Origin: Eledone cirrhosa | Lineage: Eukaryota | DNA: 64,000 bases | Direction of reading: 5' to 3' | Assembly (NCBI GenBank): GCA_964016885.1 | Contig: OZ024743.1 | Coordinates: 351,912,001-351,976,000 of the forward strand | Part shown: positions 1,472-62,330 of the stretch, piece by piece | How positions within the stretch are numbered: position 1 is the first letter of the stretch | Layout: each line of letters opens with the position of its first letter | The notes under the pieces: model-generated | Database searches by the model: none | Seen by the model: only the letters and a program-made list of their open reading frames with translations | What the model was told of the DNA's origin: nothing | Translations under genes and position numbers: made by a program

Positions 1472-4400
1472 TCCATATCTACATATATATATGTGTGCAT
1501 GTATGTATATATATATATACATACTACTATACGTCTGTATACATATATGTATGTACGTGTACATACTTATATTTAAGTAACAGCCGTACTAAGAGTGGGA
1601 AATGAAATATCGTCTCATTTTTTCAGTTTATCGTTTTCGGTGCACCCGGCCGATTAACCCACTCGATATGCAAATTGGACTACTCAGCCGTTAATATGCA
1701 TAAGATAAGTATATACGTTCAACAATCTGGCAGGAATGTATACGTTGCTGACGATAGCTAACAAGCATGAATCTAGTACAGCGTTCCTTTGTCAGTGTTG
1801 AACAAACGAGCAACGGTGGTTGCTAGACACTACGGCTTAATACGGGATGTTTGTTTACAAACACACCGAGCATTATAATAAATATTCGGTGAATCCACAC
1901 GTACATTTATATATGTGTGCATGTATGTATATATATATACATACTACTGTACGTCTGTATACATATATGTATGTACGTGTACATACTTATATTTAAGTAA
2001 CGGCCGTACTAAGAGTGGGAAATGAAATATCGTTTCATTTTTTCCGTTTATCGTTTTCGGCGCACCCGGCCGATTAACCCACTTGATATGCAAATTGGGC
2101 TACTCAGCCGTTAATATGCATAGGGTATGTATATACGTTAAACAATCTGGCAGTAAGGTATACGTTGCTGACGATAGCTAACAAGCTTGAAACAAGTACA
2201 TCGTTCCTTTGTCAGTGTTGAACAAACGAGCAACGGTGGTTGCTAGACACTACGGCTTAACACGGGATGTTTGTTTACGAACACACCGAGCATTATAATA
2301 AATGTTCGGTGAATCCATACGTGCATATATATATGTGTGCATGAATGTATATATATATATACATACTACTATACGTCTGTATACATATATGTATGTACGT
2401 GTACATACTTATATTTAATTAACAGCCGTACTAAGAGTGGCAAATGAAATATCGTTTAATTTTTTCCGTTTATCGTTTTCGGTGCACCCGCCCGATTAAC
2501 CCACTCGATATGCAAATTGGGCTAGTCAGCCGTTAATAATCATAAGGTAAGTATATACGTTCAATAATCTGGCAGGAAGCTATACGTTGCTGACGATAGC
2601 TAATAAGCTTGAAACTAGTACAGCGTTCCTTTGTCAGTGTTGAACAAACGAGCAACGGTGGTTGCTAGACACTACGTCTTCATACGGCATGTTTGTTTAC
2701 AAACACACCGAGCATTATAATAAATGTCCGTTGAATCAATACGTGCATATATATATGTGTGCATGTATATATATATATATACATACTACTGTAAGTCTGT
2801 ATACATATATGTATGTACGTGTACATACTTATATTTAAGTAACAGCCGTAATAAAGGTGGGAAATGAAATATCGTTTCATTTTTTCTGTTTATCGTTTTC
2901 GGCGCACCCGGCCGATTAACCCACTTGATATGCAAATTGGGCTACTCAGCCGTTAATATGCATAGGGTATGTATATACGTTAAACAATCTGGCAGGAAGG
3001 TATACGTTGCTGACGATAGCTAACAAGCTTGAAACAAGTACATCGTTCCTTTGTCAGTGTTGAACAAACGAGCAACGGTGGTTGCTAGACACTACGGCTT
3101 AACACGGGATGTTTGTTTACGAACACACCGAGCATTATAATAAATGTTCGGTGAATCCATACGTGCATATATATATGTGTGCATGAATGTATATATATAT
3201 ATACATACTACTATACGTCTGTATACATATATGTATGTACGTGTACATACTTATATTTAATTAACAGCCGTACTAAGAGTGGGAAATGAAATATCGTTTC
3301 ATTTTTTCCGTTTATCGTTTTCGGTGCACCCGCCCGATTAACCCACTCGATATGCAAATTGGGCTACTCAGCCGTTAATAATCATAAGGTACGTATATAC
3401 GTTCAATAATCTGGCAGGAAGCTATACGTTGCTGACGATAGCTAATAAGCTTGAAACTAGTACAGCGTTCCTTTGTCAGTGTTGAACAAACGAGCAACGG
3501 TGGTTGCTAGACACTACGTCTTCATACGGCATGTTTGTTTACAAACACACCGAGCATTATAATAAATGTCCGTTGAATCCATACGTGCATATATATATGT
3601 GTGCATGTATGTATATATATATACATACTACTGTAAGTCTGTATACATATATGTATGTACGTGTACATACTTATATTTAAGTAACAGCCGTAATAAGAGT
3701 GGGAAATGAAATATCGTTTCATTTTTTCCATTTATCGTTTTCGGTGCACCCGGCCGATTAACCCACTCGATATGCAAATTGGGATACTCAGCCGTTAATA
3801 TACATAGGGTAATTATATACTTCAACAATCTGGCAGGAATGTATACGTTGCTGACGATAGCTAACAAGCATGAATCTAGTACAGCGTTCCTTTGTCAGTG
3901 TTGAACAAACGAGCAACGGTGGTTGCTAGACACTACGGCTTAATACGGGATGTTTGTTTACAAACACACCGAGCATTATAATAAATATTCGGTGAATCCA
4001 CACGTACATATATATATGTGTGCATGTATGTATATATATATACATACTACTGTACGTCTGTATACATATATGTATGTACGTGTACATACTTATATTTAAG
4101 TAACGGCCGTACTAAGAGTGGGAAATGAAATATCGTTTCATTTTTTCCGTTTATCTTTTTCGGCGCACCCGGCCGATTAACCCACTTGATATGCAAATTG
4201 GGCTACTCAGCCGTTAATATGCATAGGGTATGTATATACGTTAAACAATCTGGCAGGAAGTTATACGTTGCTGACGATAGCTAACAAGCTTGAAACAAGT
4301 ACATCGTTCCTTTGTCAGTGTTGAACAAACGAGCAACGGTGGTTGATAGACACTACGGCTTAACACGGGATGTTTGTTTACGAACACACCGAGCATTATA

Positions 4401-7400
4401 ATAAATGTTCGGTGAATCCATACGTGCATATATATATGTGTGCATGAATGTATATATATATATACATACTACTATACGTCTGTATACATATATGTATGTA
4501 CGTGTACATACTTATATTTAATTAACAGCCGTACTAAGAGTGGGAAATGCAATATCGTTTCATTTTTTCCGTTTATCGTTTTCGGTGCACCCGCCCGATT
4601 AACCCACTCGATATGCAAATTGGGCTACTCAGCCGTTAATAATCATAAGGTAAGTATATACGTTCAATAATCTGGCAGGAAGCTATACGTTGCTGACGAT
4701 AGCTAATAAGCTTGAAACTAGTACAGCGTTCCTTTGTCAGTGTTGAACAAACGAGCAACGGTGGTTGCTAGACACTACGTCTTCATACGGCATGTTTGTT
4801 TACAAACACACCGAGCATTATAATAAGTGTCCGTTGAATCCATACGTGCATATATATATGTGTGCATTTATGTATATATATATACATACTACTCTACGTC
4901 TGTATACATATATGTATGTACGTGTACATACTTATATTTAAGTAACAGCCGTTCTAAAAGTGGGAAATGAAATATCGTTTCATTTTTTCCGTTCATCGTT
5001 TTCGGTGCACCCGGCCGATTAACCTACTCGATATGCAAATTGGGCTACTCAGCCGTTAATATGCATAAGGTTTGTATATACGTTCAATAGTCTGGCAGGA
5101 AGGTATACGTTGCTGACGATAGCTAACAAGCATGAATCTAGTACAGCGTTCCTTTGTCAGTGTTGAACAAACGAGCAACGGTGGTTGCTAGACACTACGG
5201 CTTAATACGGGATGTTTGTTTACAAACCAACCGAGCATTATAATAAATATTCGGTGAATCCACACGTACATATATATATGTGTGCATGTATGTATATATA
5301 TATACATACTACTGTACGTCTGTATACATATATGTATGTACGTGTACATACTTATATTTAAGTAACAGCCGTACTAAGAGTGGGAAATGAAATATCGTTT
5401 CATTTTTTCCGTTTATCGTTTTCGGCGCACCCGGCCGATTAACCCACTTGATATGCAAATTGGGCTACTCAGCCGTTAATATGCATAAGGTATGTATATA
5501 CGTTAAACAATCTGGCAGGAAGGTATACGTTGCTGACGATAGCTAACAAGCTTGAAACAAGTACATCGTTCCTTTGTCAGTGTTGAACAAACGAGCAACG
5601 GTGGTTGCTAGACACTACGGCTTAACACGGGACGTTTGTTTACGAACACACCGAGCATTATAATAAATGTTCGGTGAATCCATACGTGCATATACATATG
5701 TGTGCATGAATGTATTTATACATACTACTATACGTCTGTATACATATAAGTATGTACGTGTACATACTTATATTTAATTAACAGCCGTACTAAGAGTGGG
5801 AAATGACATATCGTTTCATTTTTTCCGTTTATCGTTTTCGGTACACCCGCCCGATTAACCCACTCGATATGCAAATTGGGCTACTCAGCCGTTAATAATC
5901 ATAAGGTAAGTATATACGTTCAATAATCTGGCAGGAAGGTATACGTTGCTGACGATTCCTAACAAGCTTGAAACAAGTACAGCGTTCCTTTGTCAGTGTT
6001 GAACAAACGAGCAACGATGGTTGCTAGACACTACGGCTGAATACGGGATGTTTGTTTACAAAGACACCGAGCATTATAATAAATTTTCGGTGAATCCACA
6101 CGTACATATATATATGTGTGCATGTATGTATATATATATACATACTACTCTACGCCTGTATACATATATGTATGTACGTGTACATACTTATATTTAAGTA
6201 ACAGCCCTACTAAGAGTGGGAAATGAAATATCGTCTCATTTTTTCTGTTTATCGTTTTCGGTGCACCCGGCCGATTAACCCACTTGATATGCAAACTGGG
6301 CTACTCAGCCGTTAATATGCATAAGGTATGTATATACGTTAAACAATCTGGAAGGAAGGTATACGTTGCTGACGATAGCTAACAAGCTTGAAACAAGTAC
6401 ATCGTTCCTTTGTCAGTGTTGAACAAACGAGCAACGGTGGTTGCTAGACACTACGGCTTAACACGGGACGTTTGTTTACAAACACACCGAGCATTATAAT
6501 AAATGTTCGGTGAATCCATACATGCATATACATATGTGTGCATGAATGTATATATACATACATACTACTCTACGCCTGTATACATATATGTATGTACGTG
6601 TACATACTTATATTTAAGTAACAGCCCTACTAAGAGTGGGAAATGAAATATCGTTTCATTTTTTCCGTTTATCGTTTTCGGTGCACCCGGCCGATTAACC
6701 CACTCGGTATGCAAATTGGGCTACTCAGCCGTTAATATGCATACAGTAATATATACGTTCAACAATCTGGCCGGAAAGTATACGTTGCTGACGATAGCTA
6801 ACAAGCTTGAAACTAGTACAGCGTTCCTTTGTCAGTGTTGAACAAACGAGCAACGGTGGTTGATAGACACTACGGCTTAATACAGGATGTTTCTTTACAA
6901 ATACACCGAGCATTCTAATAAATGTTCGGCGAATCCATATCTACATATATATATGTGTGCATGTATGTATATATATATATACATACTACTATACGTCTGT
7001 ATACATATATGTATGTACGTGTACATACTTATATTTAAGTAACAGCCGTACTAAGAGTGGGAAATGAAATATCGTCTCATTTTTTCAGTTTATCGCTTTT
7101 GGCGCACCCGCCCGATTAACCCACTCGATATGCAAATTGGCCTACTCAGCCGTTAATATACATAAGGTAAGTATATACGTTCAACAATCTGGCACGAAGG
7201 TATACGTTGCTGACGATATCTAACAAGCTTGAAACTAGTACAGCGTTCCTTTGTCAGTGTTGAACAAACGAGCAACGGTGGTTGCTAGACACTACGGCCT
7301 AATACAGGATGTTTTTTTACAAACACACCGAGCATTCTAAAAAATGTTCGGTGAATCCATACGTGCATATATATATATGTGCATGTATGTATATACATAT

Positions 7401-16400: not shown

Positions 16401-19400
16401 TGGGCTACTCAGCCGTTAATATGCATAGGGTATGTATATACGTTAAACAATCTGGCAGGAAGGTATACGTTGCTGACGATAGCTAACAAGCTTGAAACAA
16501 GTACATCGTTCCTTTGTCAGTGTTGAACAAACGAGCAACGGTGGTTGCTAGACACTACGGCTTAACACGGGATGTTTGTTTACGAACACACCGAGCATTA
16601 TAATAAATGTTCGGTGAATCCATACGTGCATATATATATGTGTGCATGAATGTATATATATATATACATACTACTATACGTCTGTATACATATATGTATG
16701 TACGTGTACATACTTATATTTAATTAACAGCCGTACTAAGAGTGGGAAATGAAATATCGTTTCATTTTTTCCGTTTATCGTTTTCGGTGCACCCGCCCGA
16801 TTAACCCACTCGATATGCAAATTGGGCTACTCAGCCGTTAATAATCATAAGGTACGTATATACGTTCAATAATCTGGCAGGAAGCTATACGTTGCTGACG
16901 ATAGCTAATAAGCTTGAAACTAGTACAGCGTTCCTTTGTCAGTGTTGAACAAACGAGCAACGGTGGTTGCTAGACACTACGTCTTCATACGGCATGTTTG
17001 TTTACAAACACACCGAGCATTATAATAAATGTCCGTTGAATCCATACGTGCATATATATATGTGTGCATGTATGTATATATATATACATACTACTGTAAG
17101 TCTGTATACATATATGTATGTACGTGTACATACTTATATTTAAGTAACAGCCGTAATAAGAGTGGGAAATGAAATATCGTTTCATTTTTTCCATTTATCG
17201 TTTTCGGTGCACCCGGCCGATTAACCCACTCGATATGCAAATTGGGATACTCAGCCGTTAATATACATAGGGTAATTATATACTTCAACAATCTGGCAGG
17301 AATGTATACGTTGCTGACGATAGCTAACAAGCATGAATCTAGTACAGCGTTCCTTTGTCAGTGTTGAACAAACGAGCAACGGTGGTTGCTAGACACTACG
17401 GCTTAATACGGGATGTTTGTTTACAAACACACCGAGCATTATAATAAATATTCGGTGAATCCACACGTACATATATATATGTGTGCATGTATGTATATAT
17501 ATATACATACTACTGTACGTCTGTATACATATATGTATGTACGTGTACATACTTATATTTAAGTAACGGCCGTACTAAGAGTGGGAAATGAAATATCGTT
17601 TCATTTTTTCCGTTTATCTTTTTCGGCGCACCCGGCCGATTAACCCACTTGATATGCAAATTGGGCTACTCAGCCGTTAATATGCATAGGGTATGTATAT
17701 ACGTTAAACAATCTGGCAGGAAGTTATACGTTGCTGACGATAGCTAACAAGCTTGAAACAAGTACATCGTTCCTTTGTCAGTGTTGAACAAACGAGCAAC
17801 GGTGGTTGATAGACACTACGGCTTAACACGGGATGTTTGTTTACGAACACACCGAGCATTATAATAAATGTTCGGTGAATCCATACGTGCATATATATAT
17901 GTGTGCATGAATGTATATATATATATACATACTACTATACGTCTGTATACATATATGTATGTACGTGTACATACTTATATTTAATTAACAGCCGTACTAA
18001 GAGTGGGAAATGCAATATCGTTTCATTTTTTCCGTTTATCGTTTTCGGTGCACCCGCCCGATTAACCCACTCGATATGCAAATTGGGCTACTCAGCCGTT
18101 AATAATCATAAGGTAAGTATATACGTTCAATAATCTGGCAGGAAGCTATACGTTGCTGACGATAGCTAATAAGCTTGAAACTAGTACAGCGTTCCTTTGT
18201 CAGTGTTGAACAAACGAGCAACGGTGGTTGCTAGACACTACGTCTTCATACGGCATGTTTGTTTACAAACACACCGAGCATTATAATAAGTGTCCGTTGA
18301 ATCCATACGTGCATATATATATGTGTGCATTTATGTATATATATATACATACTACTCTACGTCTGTATACATATATGTATGTACGTGTACATACTTATAT
18401 TTAAGTAACAGCCGTTCTAAAAGTGGGAAATGAAATATCGTTTCATTTTTTCCGTTCATCGTTTTCGGTGCACCCGGCCGATTAACCTACTCGATATGCA
18501 AATTGGGCTACTCAGCCGTTAATATGCATAAGGTTTGTATATACGTTCAATAGTCTGGCAGGAAGGTATACGTTGCTGACGATAGCTAACAAGCATGAAT
18601 CTAGTACAGCGTTCCTTTGTCAGTGTTGAACAAACGAGCAACGGTGGTTGCTAGACACTACGGCTTAATACGGGATGTTTGTTTACAAACCAACCGAGCA
18701 TTATAATAAATATTCGGTGAATCCACACGTACATATATATATGTGTGCATGTATGTATATATATATACATACTACTGTACGTCTGTATACATATATGTAT
18801 GTACGTGTACATACTTATATTTAAGTAACAGCCGTACTAAGAGTGGGAAATGAAATATCGTTTCATTTTTTCCGTTTATCGTTTTCGGCGCACCCGGCCG
18901 ATTAACCCACTTGATATGCAAATTGGGCTACTCAGCCGTTAATATGCATAAGGTATGTATATACGTTAAACAATCTGGCAGGAAGGTATACGTTGCTGAC
19001 GATAGCTAACAAGCTTGAAACAAGTACATCGTTCCTTTGTCAGTGTTGAACAAACGAGCAACGGTGGTTGCTAGACACTACGGCTTAACACGGGACGTTT
19101 GTTTACGAACACACCGAGCATTATAATAAATGTTCGGTGAATCCATACGTGCATATACATATGTGTGCATGAATGTATTTATACATACTACTATACGTCT
19201 GTATACATATAAGTATGTACGTGTACATACTTATATTTAATTAACAGCCGTACTAAGAGTGGGAAATGACATATCGTTTCATTTTTTCCGTTTATCGTTT
19301 TCGGTACACCCGCCCGATTAACCCACTCGATATGCAAATTGGGCTACTCAGCCGTTAATAATCATAAGGTAAGTATATACGTTCAATAATCTGGCAGGAA

Positions 19401-30599: not shown

Positions 30600-30680
<81 letters not shown>
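30600..30680. repeat. (TA)n microsatellite terminating the satellite array
   Basis: About 80 bp of pure TA directly after ...GTACATACTTA. Confidence 0.97.

Positions 30681-31114: not shown

Positions 31115-31120
<6 letters not shown>
31061..31120 (+). repeat. Short 3'-terminal fragment of the ~631-bp element at 51.7-52.6 kb, running into (TA)n
   Basis: TATATATTATGAAATACT..GTGCTTCTTGCTCATAATAATTT.TATACTTTTCATTTAT is the reverse complement of ~52369-52428. Confidence 0.75.
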
Positions 31121-31193
<73 letters not shown>

Positions 31194-31197
<4 letters not shown>

Positions 31198-32141
31198 AGT
31201 ATGTACACGTACATACATATATGTATACAGACGTACAGTAGTATGTATATATATATACATACATGCACACATATATATATGTACGTATGGAGTCACCGAA
31301 CATTTGTTATAATGCTCGGTGTGTTTGTAAACAAACATCCCGTGTTAAGCCGTAGTATCTAGCAACCACCGTTGCTCGTTTGTTCAACACTGACAAAGGA
31401 ACGCTGTACTAGTTTCAAGCTTGTTAGCTATCGTCAGCAACGTATAACTTCCTGCCAGATTGTTGAACGTATATACATACCTTATGCATATTAACGGCTG
31501 AGTAGCCCAATTTGCATATTGAGTGGGTTAATCGGCCGGGTGCACCGAAAACAATAAACGGAAAAAATGAAACGATATTTCATTTCCCACTCTTAGTACG
31601 GCTGTTACTTAAATATAAGTATGTACACGTACATACATATATGTATACAGAAGTACAGTAGTATGTATATATATATATACATACATGCACACATATATAT
31701 ATATGCACGTATGGATTCACCGAACATTTATTATAATGCTCGGTGTGTTTGTAAACAAACATCCCGTATTAAGCCGTAGTGTCTAGCAACCACCGTTGTT
31801 CGTTTGTTCAAGACTGACAAGGGAACGCTGTACTAGTTTCAAGCTTGTTAGCTATCGTCAGCAACGCATACCTTCCTGCCAGATTGTTGAATGTATACAG
31901 TTACCCTATGCATATTAACGGCTGAGTAGCCCAATTTGCATATCGAGAGGGTTAATCGGTAGGGTGCACCGAAAACGATAAACGGAAAAACGAAACGATA
32001 TTTCATTTCCCACTCTTAGTACGGCTGTTACTTAAATATAAGTATGTACACGTACATACATATATGTATACAGACGTACAGTAATATGTATATATATATA
32101 CATACATGCACGCATATATATATGTACGTATGGATTCACCG
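31194..32141 (-). repeat. Inverted ~2.25 monomers of the hammerhead satellite
   Basis: Reverse complement of the 420-bp unit; two intact hammerhead cores at 31401-31443 and 31825-31867 (both CUGACGA/GAAA/ACUAGU). Confidence 0.95.
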
Positions 32142-32628
32142 GGGAGGAGTATAATGAGGAAGGATGAGATAGGAGGAGAGATGGGTGATAGAGAGAGAGA
32201 GAGATAGCTTTTATAACTGAGAAAAATATATTGTTTTACATAGAGAGGTTAAAAAACCGTTGGAAGATAATATATAAATTAAAAGAATTTGAAAATTAAC
32301 GAAGAGAAAAATTTAGAATAATGTTAAATTAAGGTTTGTATATTGGAGGGTTTAATAATATGTACGAATAAAAGAAATTGTTAATATGTATTAAGAATAA
32401 TATTTAAGGGTTTAATAATATGTGCGATGGAAAGAAATTGTTGATATGTATTATAAAAAAATATAAAAATATAACAATAGTAATGCAATTAAGGATATAT
32501 TGTGAAAAGAAGTAGTAGAGTGGATGAATAAGTGTAATATGTATAAGTTAGTTGAGCATGAAAGTAGAGTGGATGAATAAGTGTAATATGTATAAGTTAG
32601 TTGAGCATGAAAGGGAGAAAAAAATAAT

Positions 32629-32807
32629 TGTTTCTACTTTAGGCACAAGGCCAGCAATTATCACAGTGCATTACTGGTACTTTATTTTATCGACCTCGTA
32701 AGGATGAAAGGCAAAGTCAACCTCGGCGGGATTTGAACTCAGATCGTAAAGGGACGTAACTATGCTGGAAAGCATGGCGTCCGACCCTCTACCGATACTG
32801 CCAATCC
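32629..32807 (-). mobile_element. tRNA-derived SINE inserted in the PLE 3' UTR
   Basis: Minus-strand A-box TGGCAGTATCGG and B-box GAGTTCAAATCC; 14-bp TSD GAGAAAAAAATAAT at 32615-32628 and 32808-32821. Confidence 0.9.
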
Positions 32808-33192
32808 GAGAAAAAAATAATGAATTGAGGATGAATAATCTAACGTCAAAAAAATGTTTATGTTTACGAAGGATTTTTCAAGGTGATATAAAGTAAGGAT
32901 ATATTGTGGTGGGTAATAATGAGAATTGAGAAGTATCTAGGAAGAAAAGGTACAGATTAGAGGTTAGAAATTAAAAGAAAAAAGAAAAGAAAAAAGAAAA
33001 GAAAAAAGGAAAAAAGAAAGAAAGGGAAGTGATAAATAGGAGTGATATAGAATGAGTAACTAGTATTATATAATGTATAATAAATAACATTGAAATAAGG
33101 TAGAAAGATGGGTATATTTTTAAAGAAATATATATGTATATATATATATGTGCCTTTGAGAAAAGGATTTTAAATTGGTAAAGTATTAGATA

Positions 33193-34878
33193 TTAGCTGT
33201 ATACTTTATGGAATGTTCTGTGGAATTTATGAAAGCAGAGAGAAAACAAGTCAGTGCGTCTATTTATTATAGAATCTAAATTAGATATAATGGTAAATTT
33301 TTCACATAAACAGAGATTGCATGTCTTGGATAGAGAACTATTCAAGTATAAAGAAGCAGAACAAACCTTCCAAGAGATGTTATAGTTAATATGTTTGTCT
33401 TTCAAGCACCATATAAGTTCTGAGAGTGCCGTGTTGGTTCTTTTAAGTTGGTATTTAAAAGACGAATGATGATTATAAAGACGAGCTTTAAAGGAGGTGG
33501 AAGTGGAGCCAAAATAGGTAAAGGAATTGGTGTCAGTTATAACTTTACATTCGTAGATTAAGTTTTTTTCAAGACAATGGTTGTTGAGAGGACATTTATT
33601 TTTAACAGGGCAATTACAATTGCGATTAGAGAAATTAACAGAGTTATTAACAAGTGACCTAGTGTTATCTATAGAAGGAATTGGATTGGAGAAGTTATTT
33701 ACGATAGGAATAATAGTTTCTTGATTTAGAATGGGATTGAGAACATTTAACGAAGTTGCGTTTGACGTTGTATTTGGGTTTGAAGAAATTAGCCTAGAGT
33801 TAACAATGACGTCGGGAGTACTATTACTATTATTATGATATTCAGTGTTGGAAGGAAGAGATTTAGTATTTAGTATTTTATTGTTGTGTTTAGAGATAAT
33901 GTTGGAGATGTTGGAGATGTTGGAGGAGGTCGAATAGGAAAATTTTATAGTGTGTTTGTTAAATATTTTACTATAGATATGTGAGGGAGGGAAGCATTTA
34001 TTTAAGGCACTAAAGAATAATTTAGGAATATTATTATTAATAGAGATGGAGAAAGGAGCATTATACCAGATTATGCTTTTGTATCTAGGTCTTTTATTAA
34101 AATTATTGGAATGATCATGATTAATTATTCTACTGTAAGATCTTCTAGCATTTGTTTCTTTACTATATTTGATTTTATCAGGATAACCGGCTTTAGAAAG
34201 CGCGTTATTATAGTAATTGGCGTTAGCATCAAAGATGTTTTTATTAGAAGATAGGTTGGATATTCTTTTTCCAATATTACTAACTATAGCATTCTTGATA
34301 TTAATGGGATGGTTAGATTTAAAATTAACATAATTTAGGTTCTCATTGTTTTTATGGTAAGGGTAATATAGGCCAGTGTCAAGATTAAGAGATACATCCA
34401 AGAAATTAGCTAGTTTGATGCTGTTATCAAATTCAATTTTTAAGTTATGTTGGTTAAAGAGATTACGTATATTGTTCTTAATAATATTAAGGTTAACTAT
34501 GTTGCAATTTAAGATAGTAAAGAGTCCATCGTCACGATAAATTCCACCGCGAAGTTGAGGAATTTTCCGATTCAAAGAGTTCAAAATAAAGATACCAATT
34601 AAATCTGTCAATTGGGATGAATCGGATTCTCCCATTGTGATGTCAAAGTTGTTAGAGGTATCAGCTCTGGTCCAATATTCATTGTTGAACTGTAGGATGG
34701 TTTTACGTGCGGTGAGAATGATGTGAAGTTCATATGTGGTGATGTCTGAATATTTGTAAGCGAAAGATAGAGCATTGTTGAGAAGTGAGGGCGAAATAGA
34801 AGAATAGTAGCTGGCAATATCAAATTGAATAAATGTTTGTTTGTTTTTCTTATTCAATTTGTTGAACCAGCCAATCAC
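33193..34878 (-). CDS. Penelope-like reverse transcriptase plus C-terminal GIY-YIG endonuclease (N-terminus missing)
   Basis: RT motifs FIQFDIASYYSSI, FDITMGESDSSQLTDLIG, GIYRDDGL, FLDVSLNL; linker CxCx5Cx5C (CNCPVKNKCPLNNHC); LIY...YFGSTSTSFKARLYNH; CNLCLCEK; 561 aa with no stop. Confidence 0.9.
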   Translation of the reverse strand: MIGWFNKLNKKNKQTFIQFDIASYYSSISPSLLNNALSFAYKYSDITTYELHIILTARKTILQFNNEYWTRADTSNNFDITMGESDSSQLTDLIGIFILNSLNRKIPQLRGGIYRDDGLFTILNCNIVNLNIIKNNIRNLFNQHNLKIEFDNSIKLANFLDVSLNLDTGLYYPYHKNNENLNYVNFKSNHPINIKNAIVSNIGKRISNLSSNKNIFDANANYYNNALSKAGYPDKIKYSKETNARRSYSRIINHDHSNNFNKRPRYKSIIWYNAPFSISINNNIPKLFFSALNKCFPPSHIYSKIFNKHTIKFSYSTSSNISNISNIISKHNNKILNTKSLPSNTEYHNNSNSTPDVIVNSRLISSNPNTTSNATSLNVLNPILNQETIIPIVNNFSNPIPSIDNTRSLVNNSVNFSNRNCNCPVKNKCPLNNHCLEKNLIYECKVITDTNSFTYFGSTSTSFKARLYNHHSSFKYQLKRTNTALSELIWCLKDKHINYNISWKVCSASLYLNSSLSKTCNLCLCEKFTIISNLDSIINRRTDLFSLCFHKFHRTFHKVYS

Positions 34879-35365
34879 TTCAGAAGTACCATTTTTTAAT
34901 AATACATATCAACAATTTCTTTCCATCGCACATATTATTAAACCCTTAAATATTATTCTTAATACATATTAACAATTTCTTTTCATCGCCCATATTATTA
35001 AACCCTCCAATATACAAACCTTAATTTAACATTATTCTAAATTTTTCTCTTCGTTAATTTTCAAATTCTTTTAATTTATATATTATCTTCCAACGGTTTT
35101 TTAACCTCTCTATGTAAAACAATATATTTTTCTCAGTTATAAAAGATATCTCTCCCTCTCTATCACCCATCTCTCCTCCTATCTCATCCTTCCTCATTAT
35201 ACTCCTCCCCTCCACTTTTTACTCTCATCTCCTCCTCTTTTTCACCCCCCCCCCCCTCAATTTTTTTTTTCCCAATATCACACATCAATCTAAAACTACG
35301 TTTCATATGTTGATTTAAAACTGCACTATTCACAAGTGTTTTTTAACCTTCATATCATGTCTCCC

Positions 35366-35436
35366 TATTTTATCTGACGAAAACGCAAATGTTATCGCAT
35401 GATGATATTTGTTTTTGAAATGCGCATAATAAAATA
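35366..35436 (+). ncRNA. Minimal type I hammerhead ribozyme in the PLE pseudo-LTR
   Basis: TATTTTAT-CTGACGA-(~15-bp stem II, GCAT loop)-GAAA-TGCGCA-TA^ATAAAATA; palindromic stem III as known for PLE hammerheads. Confidence 0.85.
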
Positions 35437-35562
35437 CATGGAACTCTTTTAACAATCTTTTGATCTTATATATTATTTATACTCCAGTCCTACAAACTGT
35501 AGAGTGCTACTTATCCGATATCTGCATTGCTTTATTGTACTACAAAAAAACTCACCTCCTAC

Positions 35563-35621
<59 letters not shown>

Positions 35622-35629
<8 letters not shown>

Positions 35630-35771
35630 ATACTTTGGGAGGGTCATGTTGTCAATAAGAAACACACGCACCAGTTGCTTTCACTTCAATTTATTATAAT
35701 AAATTGAAGTGAAAGCAACTGGTGCGTGTGTTTCTTATTGGCAACATGACCCTCCCAAAGTATAACAATAT
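35622..35771. repeat. 150-bp spacer-less palindrome
   Basis: Arms 35622-35696 and 35697-35771 are reverse complements with one mismatch seen; centre TTATTATAATAA. Confidence 0.92.
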
Positions 35772-36215: not shown

Positions 36216-39185
36216 CTAACAGCGCTGCGATCGAATGTGGCTTTTTAGCCCAGCCAATGATCTAAAATGTCTTGCACAGAGTCGGCAACCAAAACATTCA
36301 CTGCGAATACCCGGCTGTGGTTGGAGTTCATGTACTTTTGCATGTCGTTTGAGCCCTCCTGCTGATTTACATTCTCTACCACATGCTTGGCAAGCATGAT
36401 GAGTAGCATCTCTAACAGCAGCCTGATAGTCAACCACTGGCCTTACTTTATGACTGCGAAAATGACTTTCCAGTCCAGCTTTGTTTAGGCAGAGTCTCGC
36501 ACAGACGCTGCATGTCAGCACCATAGGAGGACCATCGCCGTCTGGAAGTGCAACAGCAATGCCCTTCCTCACATCCCGCTTTACTTTCTCGTATGCGATT
36601 CGAGATGCCTCAAAGGCAACTTTTCCCTCATATACAGTCTTTCTCCATTTATTACAATCAACAGCAATATTTTCCCATGTATCAGCAGAGATGTTAGCGT
36701 CTTTCAAAGAGGCTTTCAACGAATCCTTATACTTCTTTTTTGGTTTATGTGGCGGTCGTTTTCCTTTAACCAACTCTCCATAAAAGAGTTGTTTTGGTAT
36801 TCTAGAATCCTTCATCCTGGCAAGGTGACCACTCCAACGGAGTCGTTGCTTAAGCACAAGAGCTTCTATACTGTCACACATACAGCTTTCAAAAATCTCG
36901 ACATCACTGATGTGGTCCCTCCAGTGAACGCCATGGATCCGTCTGAGACACATCTGATGGAAACGCTCCAATTGCTTAAGGTGGTGTCGATATGTGCCCC
37001 AGCATAAAGAAGACAAGAGAGCACATATGCCTTGTATACCTTTACCTTTGTCCTCCTGCATATGTCTCGCCGACCCCAGAGTCCCCTTTCTAGCTTTCCG
37101 GAAGCATTAACCCAAGCCTTCATGTCGTCATGGAAAGACCTAACTAAAGCAAGGAACTTATACGGATTCATTAGCCCATATCCTGCCAAACAAAGAGTGA
37201 AGATGTTGCAGAAGTCTCTCACCACCATATTGTAGGAGCTCAGCATGTATGCCATCCATACCTGGAGACCTTCCACTGTTCAGCTTCGAGATAGCCACTG
37301 CAACCTCCACAAGCGTCGGAGGTTCTGCGAGAGTTACTTTCACAGGACTTTCTGGAATGAGATTGAGGAAATCTTCACTGACGACAGACGGCTGATTCAA
37401 AAGATCATCAAAGTGCTCTCGCCACCTTCGTAGAATTCCTTGTGAGTCACGAAGAAGTTCTTTGCTATCCTTGCTGCGAAGCGGTGTCACCAGAGAAGAA
37501 GACGGTCCATAAACCTCACGCAAGAGACTGTACAACAGCTTTGTGTTATTGGAATCTGACGCAGTTTGTATCTCACCAGCCTTCTCACTCCACCACTGAT
37601 CCTTCATCTGAGAAAGACTCCGTCTAACACGTAATTTTACACCCTTGAGTTCCTCATGCAACGTATTCCTCTCCTGTGGTTTTGCCGTCAAGTAACACGC
37701 CTCTTATCAGCCAACAAGTCTTCTATATGTACATCATTCTCATTAAACCAGTCCTGATGTTTTCTCTGCACCAATCCCAGAACACGCATGCCTACATCAT
37801 AAACCGACTTTTTAAGGGTCGGCCAATCCTCACCAAGATCTGCAGCCCGCATCTCTTCTTCCAATGTCTTCTTCACATTTTTATCCTTACGACGAGCAAC
37901 ATTCAATCTTTTGGTCAGAGCAACACCAGGAGCCCGGATTTTACGTTTAGTGATTAGTTTCACTTTTGCGCGTACCAGGCGGTGGTCCGTCCAGCACTCA
38001 GCTCCACGAAGAGCACGAACACACTGCACATCCTGTCTGTCACGCATCCTGACTAGGACGTAGTCCAAAAGATGCCATTCCTTAGATGCAGGGTGCATCC
38101 ATGTGGTCTTGAATTTGTTCTTTTGTTGGAACATGGTGTTGGTAACACGCAGATCCAGCTCCTCACACATCTGCAGAGGAGCATACCATTGTTGTTACAC
38201 TTTCCCACCCCATGCCTTCCGATTACATTCCATGTGTTAAAATCCCTACCCACTCTAGCATTAAAGTCACCAAGCACGATGACTTTGTCTGCCTGAGGGA
38301 TATTTCTTAAAACACCTTTCAAGGCATGGTAAAAGGACACTTTTTCTTCATCGACAGAATTCATAGTTGGAGCATACACACTCACCGGGGTCGCATATCT
38401 TCCTTTGTCCAGCGGAATTCTCATGGACATAAGACGCTCACTAATCCCTACTGGGAATTCTTCTAATTTATTCACAAGAACAGTCTTAACAGCAAATCCT
38501 ACCCCAGCCTCTCTTCTGGTTCCTTCATCTCTTCCTTTCCAGAAGAATGTATATTCTCCCCAAAATTCTGTAAGATGACCATCTCCAGCTAACCTCGTCT
38601 CAGATAAAGTCAAGATCGTAACGTCGAAGCTCCTTTGCAACAAGAGCGGTCCTTCGTTCAGGACGCTCCAAGGAACTCCTGTCAAGCAGCGTCCGTACGC
38701 TCCAGCAGCCAAGACTAAATGCCTTGTTTGGCTCTATTACAATGGCACGATGACGAGCGGGCCCTTATTGCCAATTATCTTTTTTGTTCCAGAACCTAAA
38801 TTGCCAATTATCTCTTTTATATTGTTCTGGAACATCATTGAATAAAAAAAAAAAAGAAAAAAAAAAGTAATAATAATAGTAACAATAATAATAATAATAC
38901 ACTATTAATAATTATTAATGCACTCGTGCAATGCCTGTGCGTGACGAATATTTTTAAAGTGAGGAAAGACTGTGCACTGAGCCAATCCCACTCTCTGAGC
39001 GACAGTAGCTATAACCCGAAAAGAAGAAAAGATCGACATCATCGGTAACTACTGAGCCGCAGGTTTTATGTCAGAGTTAACCCAGTTTCCTGAGATGCCT
39101 TCTTCTAGAAGAATGCTCTGACAAGGGCTAGGGGTTCTTCACTCCCAGTGGTTTAACTGCGCGATCGGGCATCCAGCCAGATTAT
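36216..39185 (-). mobile_element. RTE-clade LINE, frameshifted, RT core deleted
   Basis: APE motifs LSETRL, GVGFAV, YAPT, GDFNARVG, TWMHP..WHLLDYVL, TDHRLV; pre-RT RWREHF and SPGMDGIHAELL; post-RT RLRWSGHLARM..RIPKQLFYGEL; three C2H2-like fingers; (TG)n tail. The 5' boundary is approximate. Confidence 0.85.
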
Positions 39186-39779: not shown

Positions 39780-40104
39780 GAAGTTGTTTTCTTAAGGCCC
39801 GGTCGCTGGTGATGGTGATGGCGGCGGCGGTGGTGGTGGTGGCAGTTGATGTTGTTGTTGTGTTGTGTGCGTGTGTGTGTGTTTTGTTATTTTGAGCTTT
39901 TTTTATTGTTTGTGGTTTTTTTGGTTTTTTTTTATCGTTTTATGCCGCTGTTGTTGTTGTTGTAAATGTTCATTTCAATTCATTCTGAAGCTGTTGTTGC
40001 TGTAAACATTAGTGCCGGTGTTGTAGATGTTGGGGTTGAAATCTGGTCGTTTGACTGAGTGATGTATATACACACATATACATACATATATATATAATAT
40101 ATAC

Positions 40105-40525
40105 GATCAAAAGATGGTTAAATGAGTTCCATGTATTTTATTATGCGCATTTCAAAAACAAATATCATCATGCAATAACATTTGTGTTTTCATCAGATAA
40201 AATAGGAAGACATGATATGAAGGTTAAAAACACTTGTGGATAGTGCAGTTTTAAATCAACATATATTGATATGTTGATTTAAAACTGCACTATCCACAAG
40301 TGTTTGTAACCTTCATATCATGTCTTCCTATTTTATCTGATGAAAACACAAATGTTATTGCATGATGATATTTGTTTTTGAAATGCGCATAATAAAATAC
40401 ATGGAACTCATTTAACCATCTTTTGATCTTATATATTATGTATACTCCAGTCCTACAAACTGTAGAGTGCTTCTTATCCGATATCTGCATTGCTTTATTG
40501 TACTACAATAAAACTCACCCCCTAC
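40105..40525. mobile_element. Solo PLE pseudo-LTR with inverted head (160-bp arms), two hammerheads
   Basis: 40105-40264 is the reverse complement of 40269-40428; 40269-40525 matches ~35306-35563. Confidence 0.85.
40329..40399 (+). ncRNA. Minimal hammerhead ribozyme (pLTR copy; mirror copy at 40134-40204 on minus)
   Basis: TATTTTAT-CTGATGA-stem II-GAAA-TGCGCA-TA-ATAAAATA. Confidence 0.83.
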
Positions 40526-41204
40526 ATACATATATATACACATTCAACACAGAGTAGAGAGTTTGACAACAGGTCGATGACTTTAGTCTAGATAGGGTAA
40601 TGACATGTGATGGTGGGGAGAGAGTGTAGACATTATTGTGGTGGTGGGGGACAGTGAGATATATCTAGTTCATTTGTCCGTTTTCTTCTCTTTTCAAAAT
40701 TTGAATTTTATATATATATATATCTATATCAAATGCTCTCAATGGGGGGCATATGCACCCCCAGGGGGCGTTTCGGAACTCAGGGGGGCGTTTGGGAGCA
40801 AGGGGACACTAGGGGTGTGGCGTTTTGAGCTTTGGAGTGCACTGGAAGGCTCTTTATTTTGGTAAGTTTTATAAGCCATATTTGTATGTCTTTGAGACAG
40901 CCAGAGTGAATGCATTTGAATGAGCATGCAGATTGCTTAACTATGGTATGACCGCAGGTGTGCAGGCGTGTTTAGACATTAACCAGCAATTGAGATCCTA
41001 ACAATGGACAAACCCACAGTCATCTGGGTCAATGACACTTCATCTGGGTCAATGACACTTCAAGCGCAGCCAGTTAGTATCTTGCCTTTCCTTCACTGTA
41101 TTTCATGTTTGAAATTATTGACTCAACCGTAACAAGTTAACACTATGTAGATCTATTTTAACCTATTGTATAAATAATATTACAAATAAAAAAAAAACAA
41201 AAAA

Positions 41205-50249: not shown

Positions 50250-51656
50250 TTAATTAGGTTTATAATATTTGAATGTTCTTCTAATTCTATGATTGCAAGA
50301 TATAATTAATTCCTGTCGCTTATTTAATAGGATATCCTTAGAGTTCATGATTTCAAAAAGTTCCTGGGAGCATAGTCTACACTCGTATCTGTTATTTTGA
50401 TAAGGGGTGGCCCTTTTGAGCACACTCCAGGTCAGGTTGTAATCGATATTCTTCTTTCTATAATTATTAATTGTTTCAGCCAAGGATGTTGTATTAGCTA
50501 ATGCAGCATTTTTAAAACTATGTTACTTTAAATTGGTTAGACATAGCTCCTATATATGAATAAGTGGAGTCCTTAGTGCTAATTTTACATTTATAGACTA
50601 TGTTATTAATAAGACAATTTCCTTTTAATGAGCAATTTCTTTTGATTCTACAGTTACAACCACTCGTGAATATTATATCAGGGGAGTTACTCGACTTGTT
50701 ACAGGTGAAGGAGATGGTGGTTTGTTGCGGTTTATTTTAGTATTATGGTTGGTTTGATGTGTTGGTGGTATATTTGATTTTTTTTAACATTTATATGTGT
50801 TGTACGCACTTATATTTTGTTGTATATTTTTGGTAGTGGAGTATGAAAATTTGGCAGTTGATCTATTTAAAATTTGATGGTATTTATGGTTTGGCGGGAA
50901 GTTTTTCTCTAGGATAGTAAAAAACTTTTTAAGGATATTATCTTTAATTCGTAGATTAAATGGAGCATTATACCAAGTAACCCGTCTATTACGGTTTCGA
51001 TATTTTTTAAAAATATTTATACGATGTATCAGGATGTTTACTAAGAGAGTTACTATTAGTGAATTTATTATATATAGGTTTAGTTAGATTGACTGATTTA
51101 GGTGTTTTAGTCTGATTATTAGGAATTTTGTTAGTAATGTTGTTAACATATATTGGAGTATTATTAGGATGAATGGTTTTTTGAAAGTCATTATATTTTA
51201 TGTGAGAAGAGGTAGAGAAATTAAGTTTTAGGTTGGTATTTTTGGGTGTAGTATGAGTAGCATTTAGGTGTGGGTTTTTCATTTGGTGTTTGTTGGTAAT
51301 ATTGGGTTGTATGTTTGAAGTATTATTGGTGCAAGGTATATAGACTAATTTGTTTAAGATGAAAGGTTAAAGATTCTGAGTGAGATATTATATGCTAGGT
51401 TTTTAAGGATAGATCTAGGGTGACTGGATTGTGAGTGTATGTAATGTAAATTTTGGTCAGGTTTATGGTAAGGTTGGTAGATTCCCGTAGACAAGTCTAA
51501 AGTTATATCTAGGAAATTGACTATTTTACTGGTGTTTTCAAATGTAATAGTGAGATTGTAATAGTCTTTGAGGAAAGTTCTAATAAGTTTTTTATTTTTT
51601 TCAATTGCTGATAGGCTAAGATTAGTGGAAAGAAGAAGACAGTCATCACGATATAA

Positions 51657-61499: not shown

Positions 61500-62330
61500 C
61501 TTGTCTTTAAAGCGTAGAAATATCCGAGACCCCCAGTAGACAACTAATGAGGAAAACGACGAAGTCGGACATAGGGAGAATCAGTAAACAGATCCTAGAC
61601 CAGGTTATACCAAAAGTTAAGTAGAACGCGAGACTTAGCCTTTGGGTCAGCACCCAGGAAGTCATCTCATGGCTCAGGAATATTGAGGACAAACAGGACA
61701 CAAAATTCATCCAGTTCGACATAGTGAGCTATTACGCTTCTATTACCTTACCGCTACTTACGCCCGCTTTGGACTTTGCCAAAACACTTACACCCATCAC
61801 CGACCAAGAAAGAAACATCATTCTCCACGCCAGGAAGACAGTCCTTCTTTTCGACAACTCCAAATGGATAAAGAGAGCTCCCGACTCCCCCTTCGACGTC
61901 AGTATGGGCGTGACCGACTCGGCCAACGTGACCGATCTTATAGAATTATTCCTACTACATAAACTCACCGAAATGTTTCCTGCATTCGGCGGTGGATTGT
62001 ACCGAGACGATGGGCTCCTTACCCTCAAAGGGTACAACCCCAGTAGTACAAACCGGGTCAGTAAACAACTAATCAATTTCTTCCAGGACTGGGGATTTAA
62101 AATCACCCTACAACTTTATTGTCCGGGGCTAACTCCTACACGGGAGGACGCCGTCCGTGTAACTTATGCTCGGAGGAAACATTACAAATGCTGTTTACGA
62201 AGGACCAACCCCTAAACAAAAAAGACGAACTTGTAACAGCATGTAAACATCGATTGCGTAGGACTTACTTCGCCCTCAAAACCCCTAATGACCCGGGGTG
62301 GCTGCAACATCCTCCTTTTCCCCACTTGCC
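61500..62330 (+). pseudogene. Naiad-type PLE remnant with internal deletion
   Basis: KSDIGRISKQIL, FIQFDIVSYYASI, FDVSMGVTDSANVTDLI, GLYRDDGL, then a jump at ~62118 to the endonuclease tail CNLCSEE..LNKKDELVTACKHR. Confidence 0.85.

Follow-up and report, generated by a model that had tools for sequence, protein, structure and literature searches.

The way in which animal hammerhead satellites spread has been an open question ever since they were defined as retrozymes. Mobilisation of metazoan non-LTR retrozymes by PLEs (Penelope-like elements) was proposed (Cervera and de la Pena 2020, PMC7229834; Li, Clavereau and Pollet 2026, bioRxiv 10.64898/2026.07.22.740005), and the portions of these papers considered here argue from common ribozymes, tandem form, co-occurrence and pLTR homology. 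The window that we analysed, 64,000 nucleotides of Eledone cirrhosa contig OZ024743.1, contains a 420-bp hammerhead repeat joined directly to a PLE. This locus raises the question of whether a PLE enzyme copied the repeat and whether the junction was made during such copying. Our results make it reasonably probable that the repeat was reverse-transcribed in trans by the enzyme of a Hydra-clade PLE and that the junction at 32141 formed in one such insertion.

On the minus strand, a PLE open reading frame (33193-34891) is followed by its 3' UTR, the junction at 32141, 2.25 repeat units (31195-32141; 2.3 tandem copies by TRF) and (TA)n. The initial annotation had claimed this order, together with a 1-nt overlap at the junction, ribozyme-sense units and, in an inverted copy, a UTR continuing for some 160 nt to the PLE's own hammerhead; the coordinates bear out all of these points. 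Two type I hammerheads of the same motif are predicted on the minus strand of the repeat, at 31402-31442 (predicted cut between 31407 and 31406) and 31826-31866, with cores starting at 31437 and 31861. The UTR (32142-33192, minus strand) belongs to a PLE family, H1, and is cut about 260 nt ahead of the 'short' one of the two H1 ends. It was later changed by tandem duplication of 49 bp (32514-32613) and by a SINE-like insert of high copy number (32619-32807), which is absent from most H1 copies. The reading frame is 5'-truncated, with about 260 N-terminal residues missing, and meets the opposite arm head to head at an inversion junction, where imperfect microhomology extends over a few bases (34891-34899). 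This second arm, on the plus strand, consists of the H1 3' UTR/pLTR (34899-35567); it matches 32141-32462 at 97% and extends 164 nt further to the PLE hammerhead core at 35374. The H1 hammerhead (35368-35434, plus strand) is a predicted minimal form with a long stem II and a palindromic stem III, which misses the strict descriptor with its 4-bp stem II and is without an Rfam match. The arm finishes with the H1 'tail' (35470-35567, plus strand), about 97 nt from the short end (~35469) to the 'long' end on (TA)n. The composite insertion is bounded by (TA)n tracts at 31118-31194, the putative target, and at 35565-35625. A target-site duplication is unreadable inside (TA)n, and no satellite resumes beyond 35565, where it would have spoken against the proposed fusion.

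The PLE had been labelled a Naiad, an identity that is ruled out by the domain order, with the RT ahead of the endonuclease. In the window ORF (P0001), the YRDD of the RT lies at residue 124 and the endonuclease motifs at 431-558, the CxCX5C linker, CxxC and CxH being found at positions 431, 530 and 558. No endonuclease motif precedes the RT in a longer H1 copy (L104), whose frame carries the Hydra motifs DKT (in place of DKG) at 144 and RLRWIA (a variant of RWK) at 56. The C-terminal GIY-YIG-like endonuclease was recognised by motif (IY...YFG), and a Pfam search with the window ORF gave no family match. Judged by these motifs, H1 is a Hydra-clade PLE with its endonuclease at the C-terminus. 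It has in common with the known C-terminal EN+ PLEs of this clade (Craig et al. 2021, PMC8557442) not only the position of the endonuclease, DKT, the CxCX5C linker, CxxC and CxH, but also a pLTR hammerhead, a (TA)n target and an inverted 5'-truncated arm. Unlike them, it has a unit of about 3.5 kb (L256) rather than less than 3 kb, RWI rather than RWK, and a tail of about 97 nt (about 83 nt in a second Hydra family, H2) rather than the 30-40 nt usually quoted. Naiads share with H1 the (TA)n target, inverted arm and tail; however, their endonuclease is N-terminal and they are without a canonical hammerhead, whereas in H1 the endonuclease is C-terminal and a hammerhead motif is present.

The repeat unit measures 420-424 bp, with a GC content of 0.42 in its non-TA part. 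Its copies are dispersed, in arrays that range from less than one to more than 100 units, and the 3' half of its ribozyme has 8,639 exact matches. The predicted hammerhead combines a 5-bp stem I, a CUGACGA core, a 4-bp stem II over a U-U at its base and a palindromic minimal stem III. A hammerhead descriptor matched the unit and none of 2000 dinucleotide shuffles; the core columns are 94-100% conserved over 184+ repeat copies, and 26 of the roughly 72 units of a large neighbouring array pass the strict descriptor. None of the 150 listed Rfam matches to the whole window (of 537) is a hammerhead, nor did two targeted scans give one, and the hammerheads of both repeat and PLE go unrecognised there. 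Minimum-energy folds of single units did not form the ribozyme and were no better than those of shuffles (z -0.5 to -2.0; circular monomer z -1.5), and folding energy was left out of the evidence for it. No frame of at least 150 aa is present in 1-32141. By its sequence, the repeat appears to be non-coding and, with its predicted hammerhead, to match the traits of non-LTR retrozymes. As described in the parts of PMC7229834 and bioRxiv 10.64898/2026.07.22.740005 considered here, these are short low-GC tandem units with one type I hammerhead, occurring as dimers to large multimers with PLEs alongside, and the same is found here. Units of young arrays are 0-0.6% apart (L033, L041-L043, L304, L340, L171), which would fit a circular template without proving one.

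The single chimera is a minor part of the evidence when set against the footprint of the whole family. Repeat insertions have variable 5' ends and head-to-head arms, and they end on (TA)n at two fixed sites, which are separated by 60 nt. Exact matches to these ends followed by (AT)n number 3,730 and 1,471, versus 4 at an internal TTAT control site. We sampled 182 repeat ends from listed places and, within the initial 195 Mb of a single contig, assigned their classes in part by visual inspection; on this basis, the 90 short ends have a long partner arm in 59 cases and a short one in 4, and the 92 long ends a short partner in 46 and a long one in none (Fisher p ~2e-26). H1, for whose two ends 2,498 and 2,163 exact matches of end+(AT)n were counted, pairs in the same manner (42 short versus 1 long partners of 60, and 17 long versus 0 short of 30). 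All four ends of repeat and PLE finish in TTAT, able to pair with (TA)n, and the locus itself fits the rule, joining an H1 long end to a repeat short end. The footprint of the repeat is the PLE 'tail' pattern, that is, the same two-ended insertions as those of the genome's PLEs. In vitro, such a tail has been shown to mark two sites at which the RT starts (PMC11167929). As in the work on tails and on internal initiation by the RT (Frangieh et al. 2024, PMC11167929; Arkhipova et al. 2013, PMC3846280), there are two genomic ends, only one arm bears a tail, the targets are AT-rich, and both strands would be cut and extended. In PMC11167929, however, a Poseidon element acted on its own RNA and started without target homology, whereas here the signature lies on a non-coding passenger whose TTAT ends can pair with the target. 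This PLE-specific footprint of two start sites extends over thousands of insertions and makes PLE-type mobilisation of the repeat family very probable. The initial annotation had suggested that a PLE RT primed at (TA)n on satellite RNA and copied several units, a suggestion that the data support, far more through the family than through the locus. We did not find such insertion evidence for a repeat-PLE partnership in the literature. The footprint also provides a genomic test for other genomes, namely two fixed ends of which the long one is paired with the short one.

A different relation between repeat and PLE has to be weighed, namely that an autonomous PLE outside the sample has the repeat as its pLTR, or that the composite derives from a chimeric source element (3' transduction), with no need for a passenger RNA or a switch. 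Xenopus retrozymes do resemble pLTRs, according to the part of bioRxiv 10.64898/2026.07.22.740005 considered here. We nevertheless hold this reading to be quite unlikely, since no recurrent sequence lies upstream of the repeat in the 182 sampled ends and comparing the repeat with what was sampled of five Hydra families and of two other TA-targeting repeats gave no similarity better than E 0.1. Moreover, a composite family with a fixed junction was rejected, as only a paralogue of the locus has the junction too. The 420-bp unit shows no similarity to the sampled PLEs, unlike retrozymes with pLTR homology. MRC1 and other non-autonomous Chlamys elements, as covered in part of PMC8557442, are likewise non-autonomous and multicopy head-to-tail with a PLE architecture; they come from a green alga and generally have 3' sequence in common with an autonomous family, whereas none was found here in the sampled families. 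On balance, we lean slightly towards a retrozyme unrelated to its host PLEs, with its own pair of RT start sites, that would be copied in trans by Hydra enzymes jumping between its RNA and the RNAs of several PLE families. If true, this reading would constitute direct genomic evidence for the proposed partnership of PLEs and retrozymes, with candidate enzymes and a cis-element of 60 nt that is already mapped.

Direct fusions to other DNA, which add to the footprint a kind of evidence distinct from that of the retrozyme papers, bear on the identity of these enzymes. TA-free fusions account for 19 of the 182 sampled repeat ends, and Hydra PLEs from four families are the partner in 8 of them. The flanks of 44 intact insertions, with 6.6% Hydra DNA (range 1.4-10%), give the expectation, and the excess is significant (binomial 1e-5 to 3e-4), under a null whose family library was partly built from fusion partners. 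In 7 of these 8 fusions the polarity could be made by an RT. PLE-PLE fusions across families are also present (L250, L261, L312).

The junction at 32141 is, on comparison of its assembled copies, a single event that later spread by segmental duplication (4 paralogues). The initial annotation had called for other satellite-PLE chimeras; fusions to other Hydra PLEs do exist, but this junction recurs in a paralogue only, a diverged copy at G000:C4:352284632 that is identical over 101 nt. None of the 27 contig pieces listed (out of 505) bridged it; these pieces come from at most two samples and may not represent the assembled individual. An assembly artefact would accord with this result, just as machinery other than that of Hydra PLEs (a Naiad or Neptune PLE, a LINE or DNA-based rolling circles) could be imagined, given that Naiads also favour (TA)n and bear tails (PMC8557442); the link to Hydra would then be incidental. 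We give such explanations very little credence. Two assembled copies, with a 1-2% difference between their flanks, contain the junction, and in three further copies a deletion runs through it; in addition, the two-site tail has been described as unique to PLEs (PMC11167929), and the ORF-bearing PLE partners found are all Hydra-like, though the query used was itself Hydra.

A more serious rival accepts PLE mobilisation of the family and makes the junction secondary. H1 and the repeat would have inserted separately in one (TA)n tract, and the intervening DNA, comprising some 260 bp of UTR, the (TA)n and, if there was one, a second arm of the repeat, would have been lost at the second insertion or later. 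The precursor for such a loss is seen at L010, where a repeat long end, (TA)n and an H1 short end follow one another, and similar neighbours occur at L184, L229 and L260. Two independent deletions in the paralogues of the locus point the same way, as do three fusions of short to short ends (L330, L300, L179) and one tail-to-tail (L161), which are beyond a simple template switch. Random loss into flanks, however, would give about one Hydra partner in 19, and 8 were seen. Rare variants amount to 2.5-3.4% in the repeat units versus 0.8-1.3% in the PLE part, as if the repeat were older, but this excess is equally large after the duplication as before it and therefore reflects rate, not age. With a roughly 3-fold faster change of the repeat, the mutation loads would be compatible with an equal age of both parts, and age is neutral between switch and deletion. 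We consider secondary loss a possible but rather unlikely origin. Because Hydra partners are enriched among the fusions, the switch to PLE RNA put forward in the initial annotation is the likelier origin, though not proven; this is one event, a deletion would give an equal sequence, and deletion between neighbours is a live rival. An origin of the junction at the level of reverse transcription is, all told, probable.

Under the template-switch reading, a PLE endonuclease would cut both strands of (TA)n, and the RT would start at internal sites, one arm from the long site and the other from the short site, aided by the terminal TTAT, which can pair with the target. Tandem units would come from RNA in circular or multimeric form. 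At this locus, one arm would have begun at the H1 long end and the other at the repeat short end; the latter would have been copied for 2.25 units before the RT jumped to H1 RNA at the UTR. The SINE insertion, segmental duplication and deletions would have followed insertion. Such a switch requires that the second arm be started on an RNA other than that of the first. The particular PLE family had also been presented as the partner of the repeat, which our results do not show. The repeat is fused to three Hydra families besides H1, and none of 60 H1 long-end loci carries it; the chimera does not single out H1. Youth of copies was set aside as a criterion, since H1 and H2 alike have very young copies. 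Together, the footprint and the fusions above flank expectation turn the proposal of mobilisation by PLEs into a defined experiment, in which the RT families are named, both starts on the RNA are mapped and the target is (TA)n.

The window also contains a large array of the repeat on the plus strand (4-30601; 72.7 units in the window), which reaches about 45.7 kb with the part upstream. Its terminus on (TA)n is the same short 3' end as that of the fused arm (31195-32141, minus strand), so that a 45-kb satellite array shares its retrotransposition end with single insertions. A local origin of the small array by copying from the large one is not supported, its nearest unit there being 4.0-5.2% away versus 2.5-3.1% for the nearest dispersed unit. 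Some rare variants are common to both arrays.

On sequence evidence, the 420-bp unit is a retrozyme-type repeat that inserts with the whole footprint of a PLE and is fused to Hydra PLEs more often than expected. In the window (G000:C4:351912001-351976000, our handle for the contig; genome 3.0 Gb), tandem repeat calls place 72.7 units at 4-30603 on the plus strand and a fused arm of 2.3 units at 31193-32141 on the minus strand. An ORF scan gives a 571-residue frame of the PLE family H1 at 33193-34908, also on the minus strand (H1 and H2 are our own family labels). The H1 UTR meets the repeat at 32141 on minus with an overlap of 1 nt. An inverted copy of this UTR (34899-35210, 97% identity) carries on for 164 nt as far as a hammerhead core at 35374, then reaches (TA)n at 35565. 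The initial annotation had described this anatomy correctly, from the ORF, UTR and 1-nt-overlap junction to the repeat units and inverted copy, and its suggestion that the UTR appears to run about 160 nt further to the PLE's own hammerhead is borne out. Its clade name, Naiad, fails. The H1 frame carries YRDD at residue 124, CxCX5C at 431, an IY...YFG endonuclease motif at 465, CxxC at 530 and CxH at 558. It is short of about 260 N-terminal residues; RLRWIA and DKT are present in a longer H1 copy (L104, frame of 805 residues), which has no endonuclease motif N-terminally. This motif set fits the Hydra-clade description in section 11 of PMC8557442, a source that describes Naiads as having the endonuclease first and no hammerheads. 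Naiad identity was rejected because the endonuclease motif of H1 is C-terminal and a hammerhead core is present; by motifs and domain order, we assign the PLE at the junction to the Hydra clade.

The lasting result concerns the whole repeat family: a PLE footprint on a retrozyme-type repeat, together with the excess of Hydra fusions. The repeat is dispersed across many contigs, and the 3' half of its ribozyme has 8,639 exact matches. It meets (AT)n at two sites separated by 60 nt, the long end (3,730 exact matches) and the short end (1,471), whereas an internal TTAT control site gave 4 exact matches and reversed-pattern controls gave 0. H1 also has two (AT)n ends, with 2,498 and 2,163 exact matches and about 97 nt between them, and TTAT terminates all four ends. 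Both the fused arm in the window and its 45.7-kb array terminate at the repeat short end. A hairpin is predicted in the repeat tail at unit positions 21-50, with the long end immediately 3' of it; the H1 and H2 tails fold weakly and have no obvious sequence in common with the repeat tail.

Repeat ends were classified from the listed places at the start of contig C1. Of 90 short ends (from the first 100 listed, one dropped as fetched on the wrong side), 59 had a long partner arm, 4 a short one and 5 a partner stopping elsewhere; 7 were single arms, 10 were fused without (TA)n and 5 were unresolved. Of 92 long ends (from the first 100 listed, leaving out 6 whose partner end was already in the sample), 46 had a short partner (50 if four very short arms are counted), 0 a long one and 4 a partner stopping elsewhere, with 29 single or ambiguous and 9 fused. 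This long-with-short pairing gives a Fisher p of about 2e-26, on classes assigned partly by eye and counts that are partly non-independent, since both ends of a few insertions entered the sample and one cluster is tandemly duplicated. In an automatic count for H1, 60 long ends had 42 short partners versus 1 long, and 30 short ends had 17 long versus 0 short. H2, a second Hydra family, follows the same rule. The composite in the window, an H1 long end paired sense-to-sense with a repeat short end, is as expected of one insertion. A PLE 'tail' is described at one end of insertions (PMC8557442; PMC3846280), and in vitro it reflects two internal RT start sites, the protein having cut and extended both strands (PMC11167929). 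We conclude that the long/short difference of the repeat is the PLE tail.

Fusions to other DNA were found at 19 of 182 repeat ends, which adjoin non-repeat DNA without intervening (TA)n. Eight have partners from ORF-linked Hydra families: H1 (L330), H2 (L144, L161, L162, L300), a third family (L312) and another (L129, L400). The remaining partners are two TA-targeting repeats with no ORF shown (L179, L318) and nine stretches of other DNA. In the 1.6-kb flanks of 44 intact insertions, 6.6% of the DNA is Hydra (1.4-10%, depending on distance), and the binomial p for eight in 19 is 1e-5 to 3e-4, a figure flattered by a family library built partly from the partners; H1 and H2 alone (5/19) give p 0.007. 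Seven of the eight Hydra fusions are sense-to-sense or head-to-head, two of them (L300, L400) with microhomology of 8-11 nt. L161 is tail-to-tail and must be a deletion; by chance, about one case would be expected. PLE-type fusions join long to short ends in five cases (L129, L144, L162, L318, L400) and short to short in three (L179, L300, L330), the pairing at L312 being unclear. The repeat occurred at 0 of 60 sampled H1 long-end loci. Four Hydra families appear in these fusions, H1 and H2 both with very young copies, and H1 is one of several candidate partners. Different Hydra families are also joined directly without (TA)n (L250, L261, L312), so cross-family chimerism extends beyond the repeat.

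The junction at 32141 itself is a single event. A 101-nt junction query had two full-length matches among the best 40 of 258 candidates, the window and C4:352284583. In the 160 kb around the latter, the whole locus and its flanks recur as four inverted duplicates spaced about 27.7 kb apart; one retains the junction, three have a common deletion through it, and all four miss the spacer between the opposed repeat arrays. These duplicates (G000:C4:352170001-352300000, L071-L083) correspond to about 31.5-57 kb of the window, a fold-back deletion uniting the opposed arrays. In contigs of four public runs, none of 27 listed of 505 pieces bridged the junction.

The fused repeat units carry 11 and 8 rare variants per 325 nt, and the H1 ORF 13 per 1,692. 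The unit in the paralogue is recombinant between the two units in the window, with variants 73 and 74 from one and 133, 163 and 318 from the other. A hand recount gave 5/325 shared and 7/650 private variants for the repeat, and 13/2,307 and 15/4,614 for the PLE. The rate of change in the repeat is about three times that in the PLE, before the duplication as well as after it, so equal age of the two fused parts is allowed. An origin of the junction during reverse transcription is, in our judgement, fairly probable. Had the repeat inserted next to an H1 short end within a single (TA)n tract, a subsequent deletion would leave the identical junction sequence; such a neighbour arrangement exists at L010, and the window locus is deletion-prone. 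The initial reading is partly supported: PLE-type mobilisation is well supported by the two fixed ends, the paired arms and the Hydra fusion excess, and a template switch is the likelier route to the junction at 32141, though deletion would yield the same sequence.

Every fused unit carries a type I hammerhead motif (stems I and II of 5 and 4 bp, stem III minimal and palindromic), and the descriptor matched 0 of 2000 shuffles. Motifs with palindromic stem III are reported to act as dimers (PMC4209133). An Rfam scan matched neither this hammerhead nor that of H1, so activity is predicted only. Neighbouring units in young arrays differ by 0-0.6%, consistent with copying from a circular or a homogeneous multimeric template. 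The 182 sampled repeat ends had no recurrent upstream sequence. Compared with the parts sampled from five Hydra families and from two other repeats, the unit had no match better than E 0.1; it may still derive from an unsampled parent element. Non-autonomous Chlamys elements such as MRC1 are described as having 3' similarity to autonomous families (PMC8557442), whereas the 420-bp repeat matches none of the sampled Hydra families. The repeat behaves like a non-autonomous PLE and by structure classes as a non-LTR retrozyme, with putative cleavage and circles. PLEs were proposed as retrozyme mobilisers from shared ribozymes, tandem form and co-existence (PMC7229834); a later preprint (bioRxiv 10.64898/2026.07.22.740005) adds co-occurrence and homology with the pLTR, and leaves the mechanism open. 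Searches of the open-access literature turned up no retrozyme described with tails, with paired arms or with fusions to PLEs.

The big array runs from G000:C4:351896881 to window position 30601 (about 45.7 kb, about 108 units). Its first base is unit position 99 and its 3' terminus is the retrotransposition short end; it may be a single insertion enlarged by unequal exchange. Recurring rows in the TRF output point to a 13.46-kb duplication within it. The fused unit at 31610-31285 has three rare variants in common with array units 4098-4423 and 17561-17886, a hint that the opposed arrays have exchanged sequence by gene conversion. Immediately past the right (TA)n lies a 150-bp near-perfect palindrome (35622-35771), likely another TA-targeting two-armed stub. 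The look of the SINE-like insert in the H1 UTR (32619-32807) suggests that the host may be a cephalopod. Long minus frames resembling a broken LINE by eye, together with Hydra-like ORF fragments (43-51% identity to H1), lie at 36216-38733 (minus strand), 61523-62104 and 51357-51560. Many short H1 copies (L181-L270, including a small two-armed insertion at 40089-40538) begin near about 35304, 70 nt upstream of the hammerhead, possibly an RNA 5' end or RT stop. H2 (L411-L440) has 21,452 exact long ends genome-wide, mainly 60-200-bp stubs bearing a short inverted arm; its terminal region contains a GAAAC motif, and no CUGANGA core was found there. Other hammerhead-like motif families, one canonical-looking and one with a long stem II, recur in flanks (L058, L063, L032, L136, L159; window 46825). 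Finally, L158:210-720 holds two copies of another tandem unit, about 310 bp long and terminating on (TA)n. It has a type I hammerhead motif, with a stem II loop similar to that of the 420-bp repeat, and is probably a second retrozyme family.
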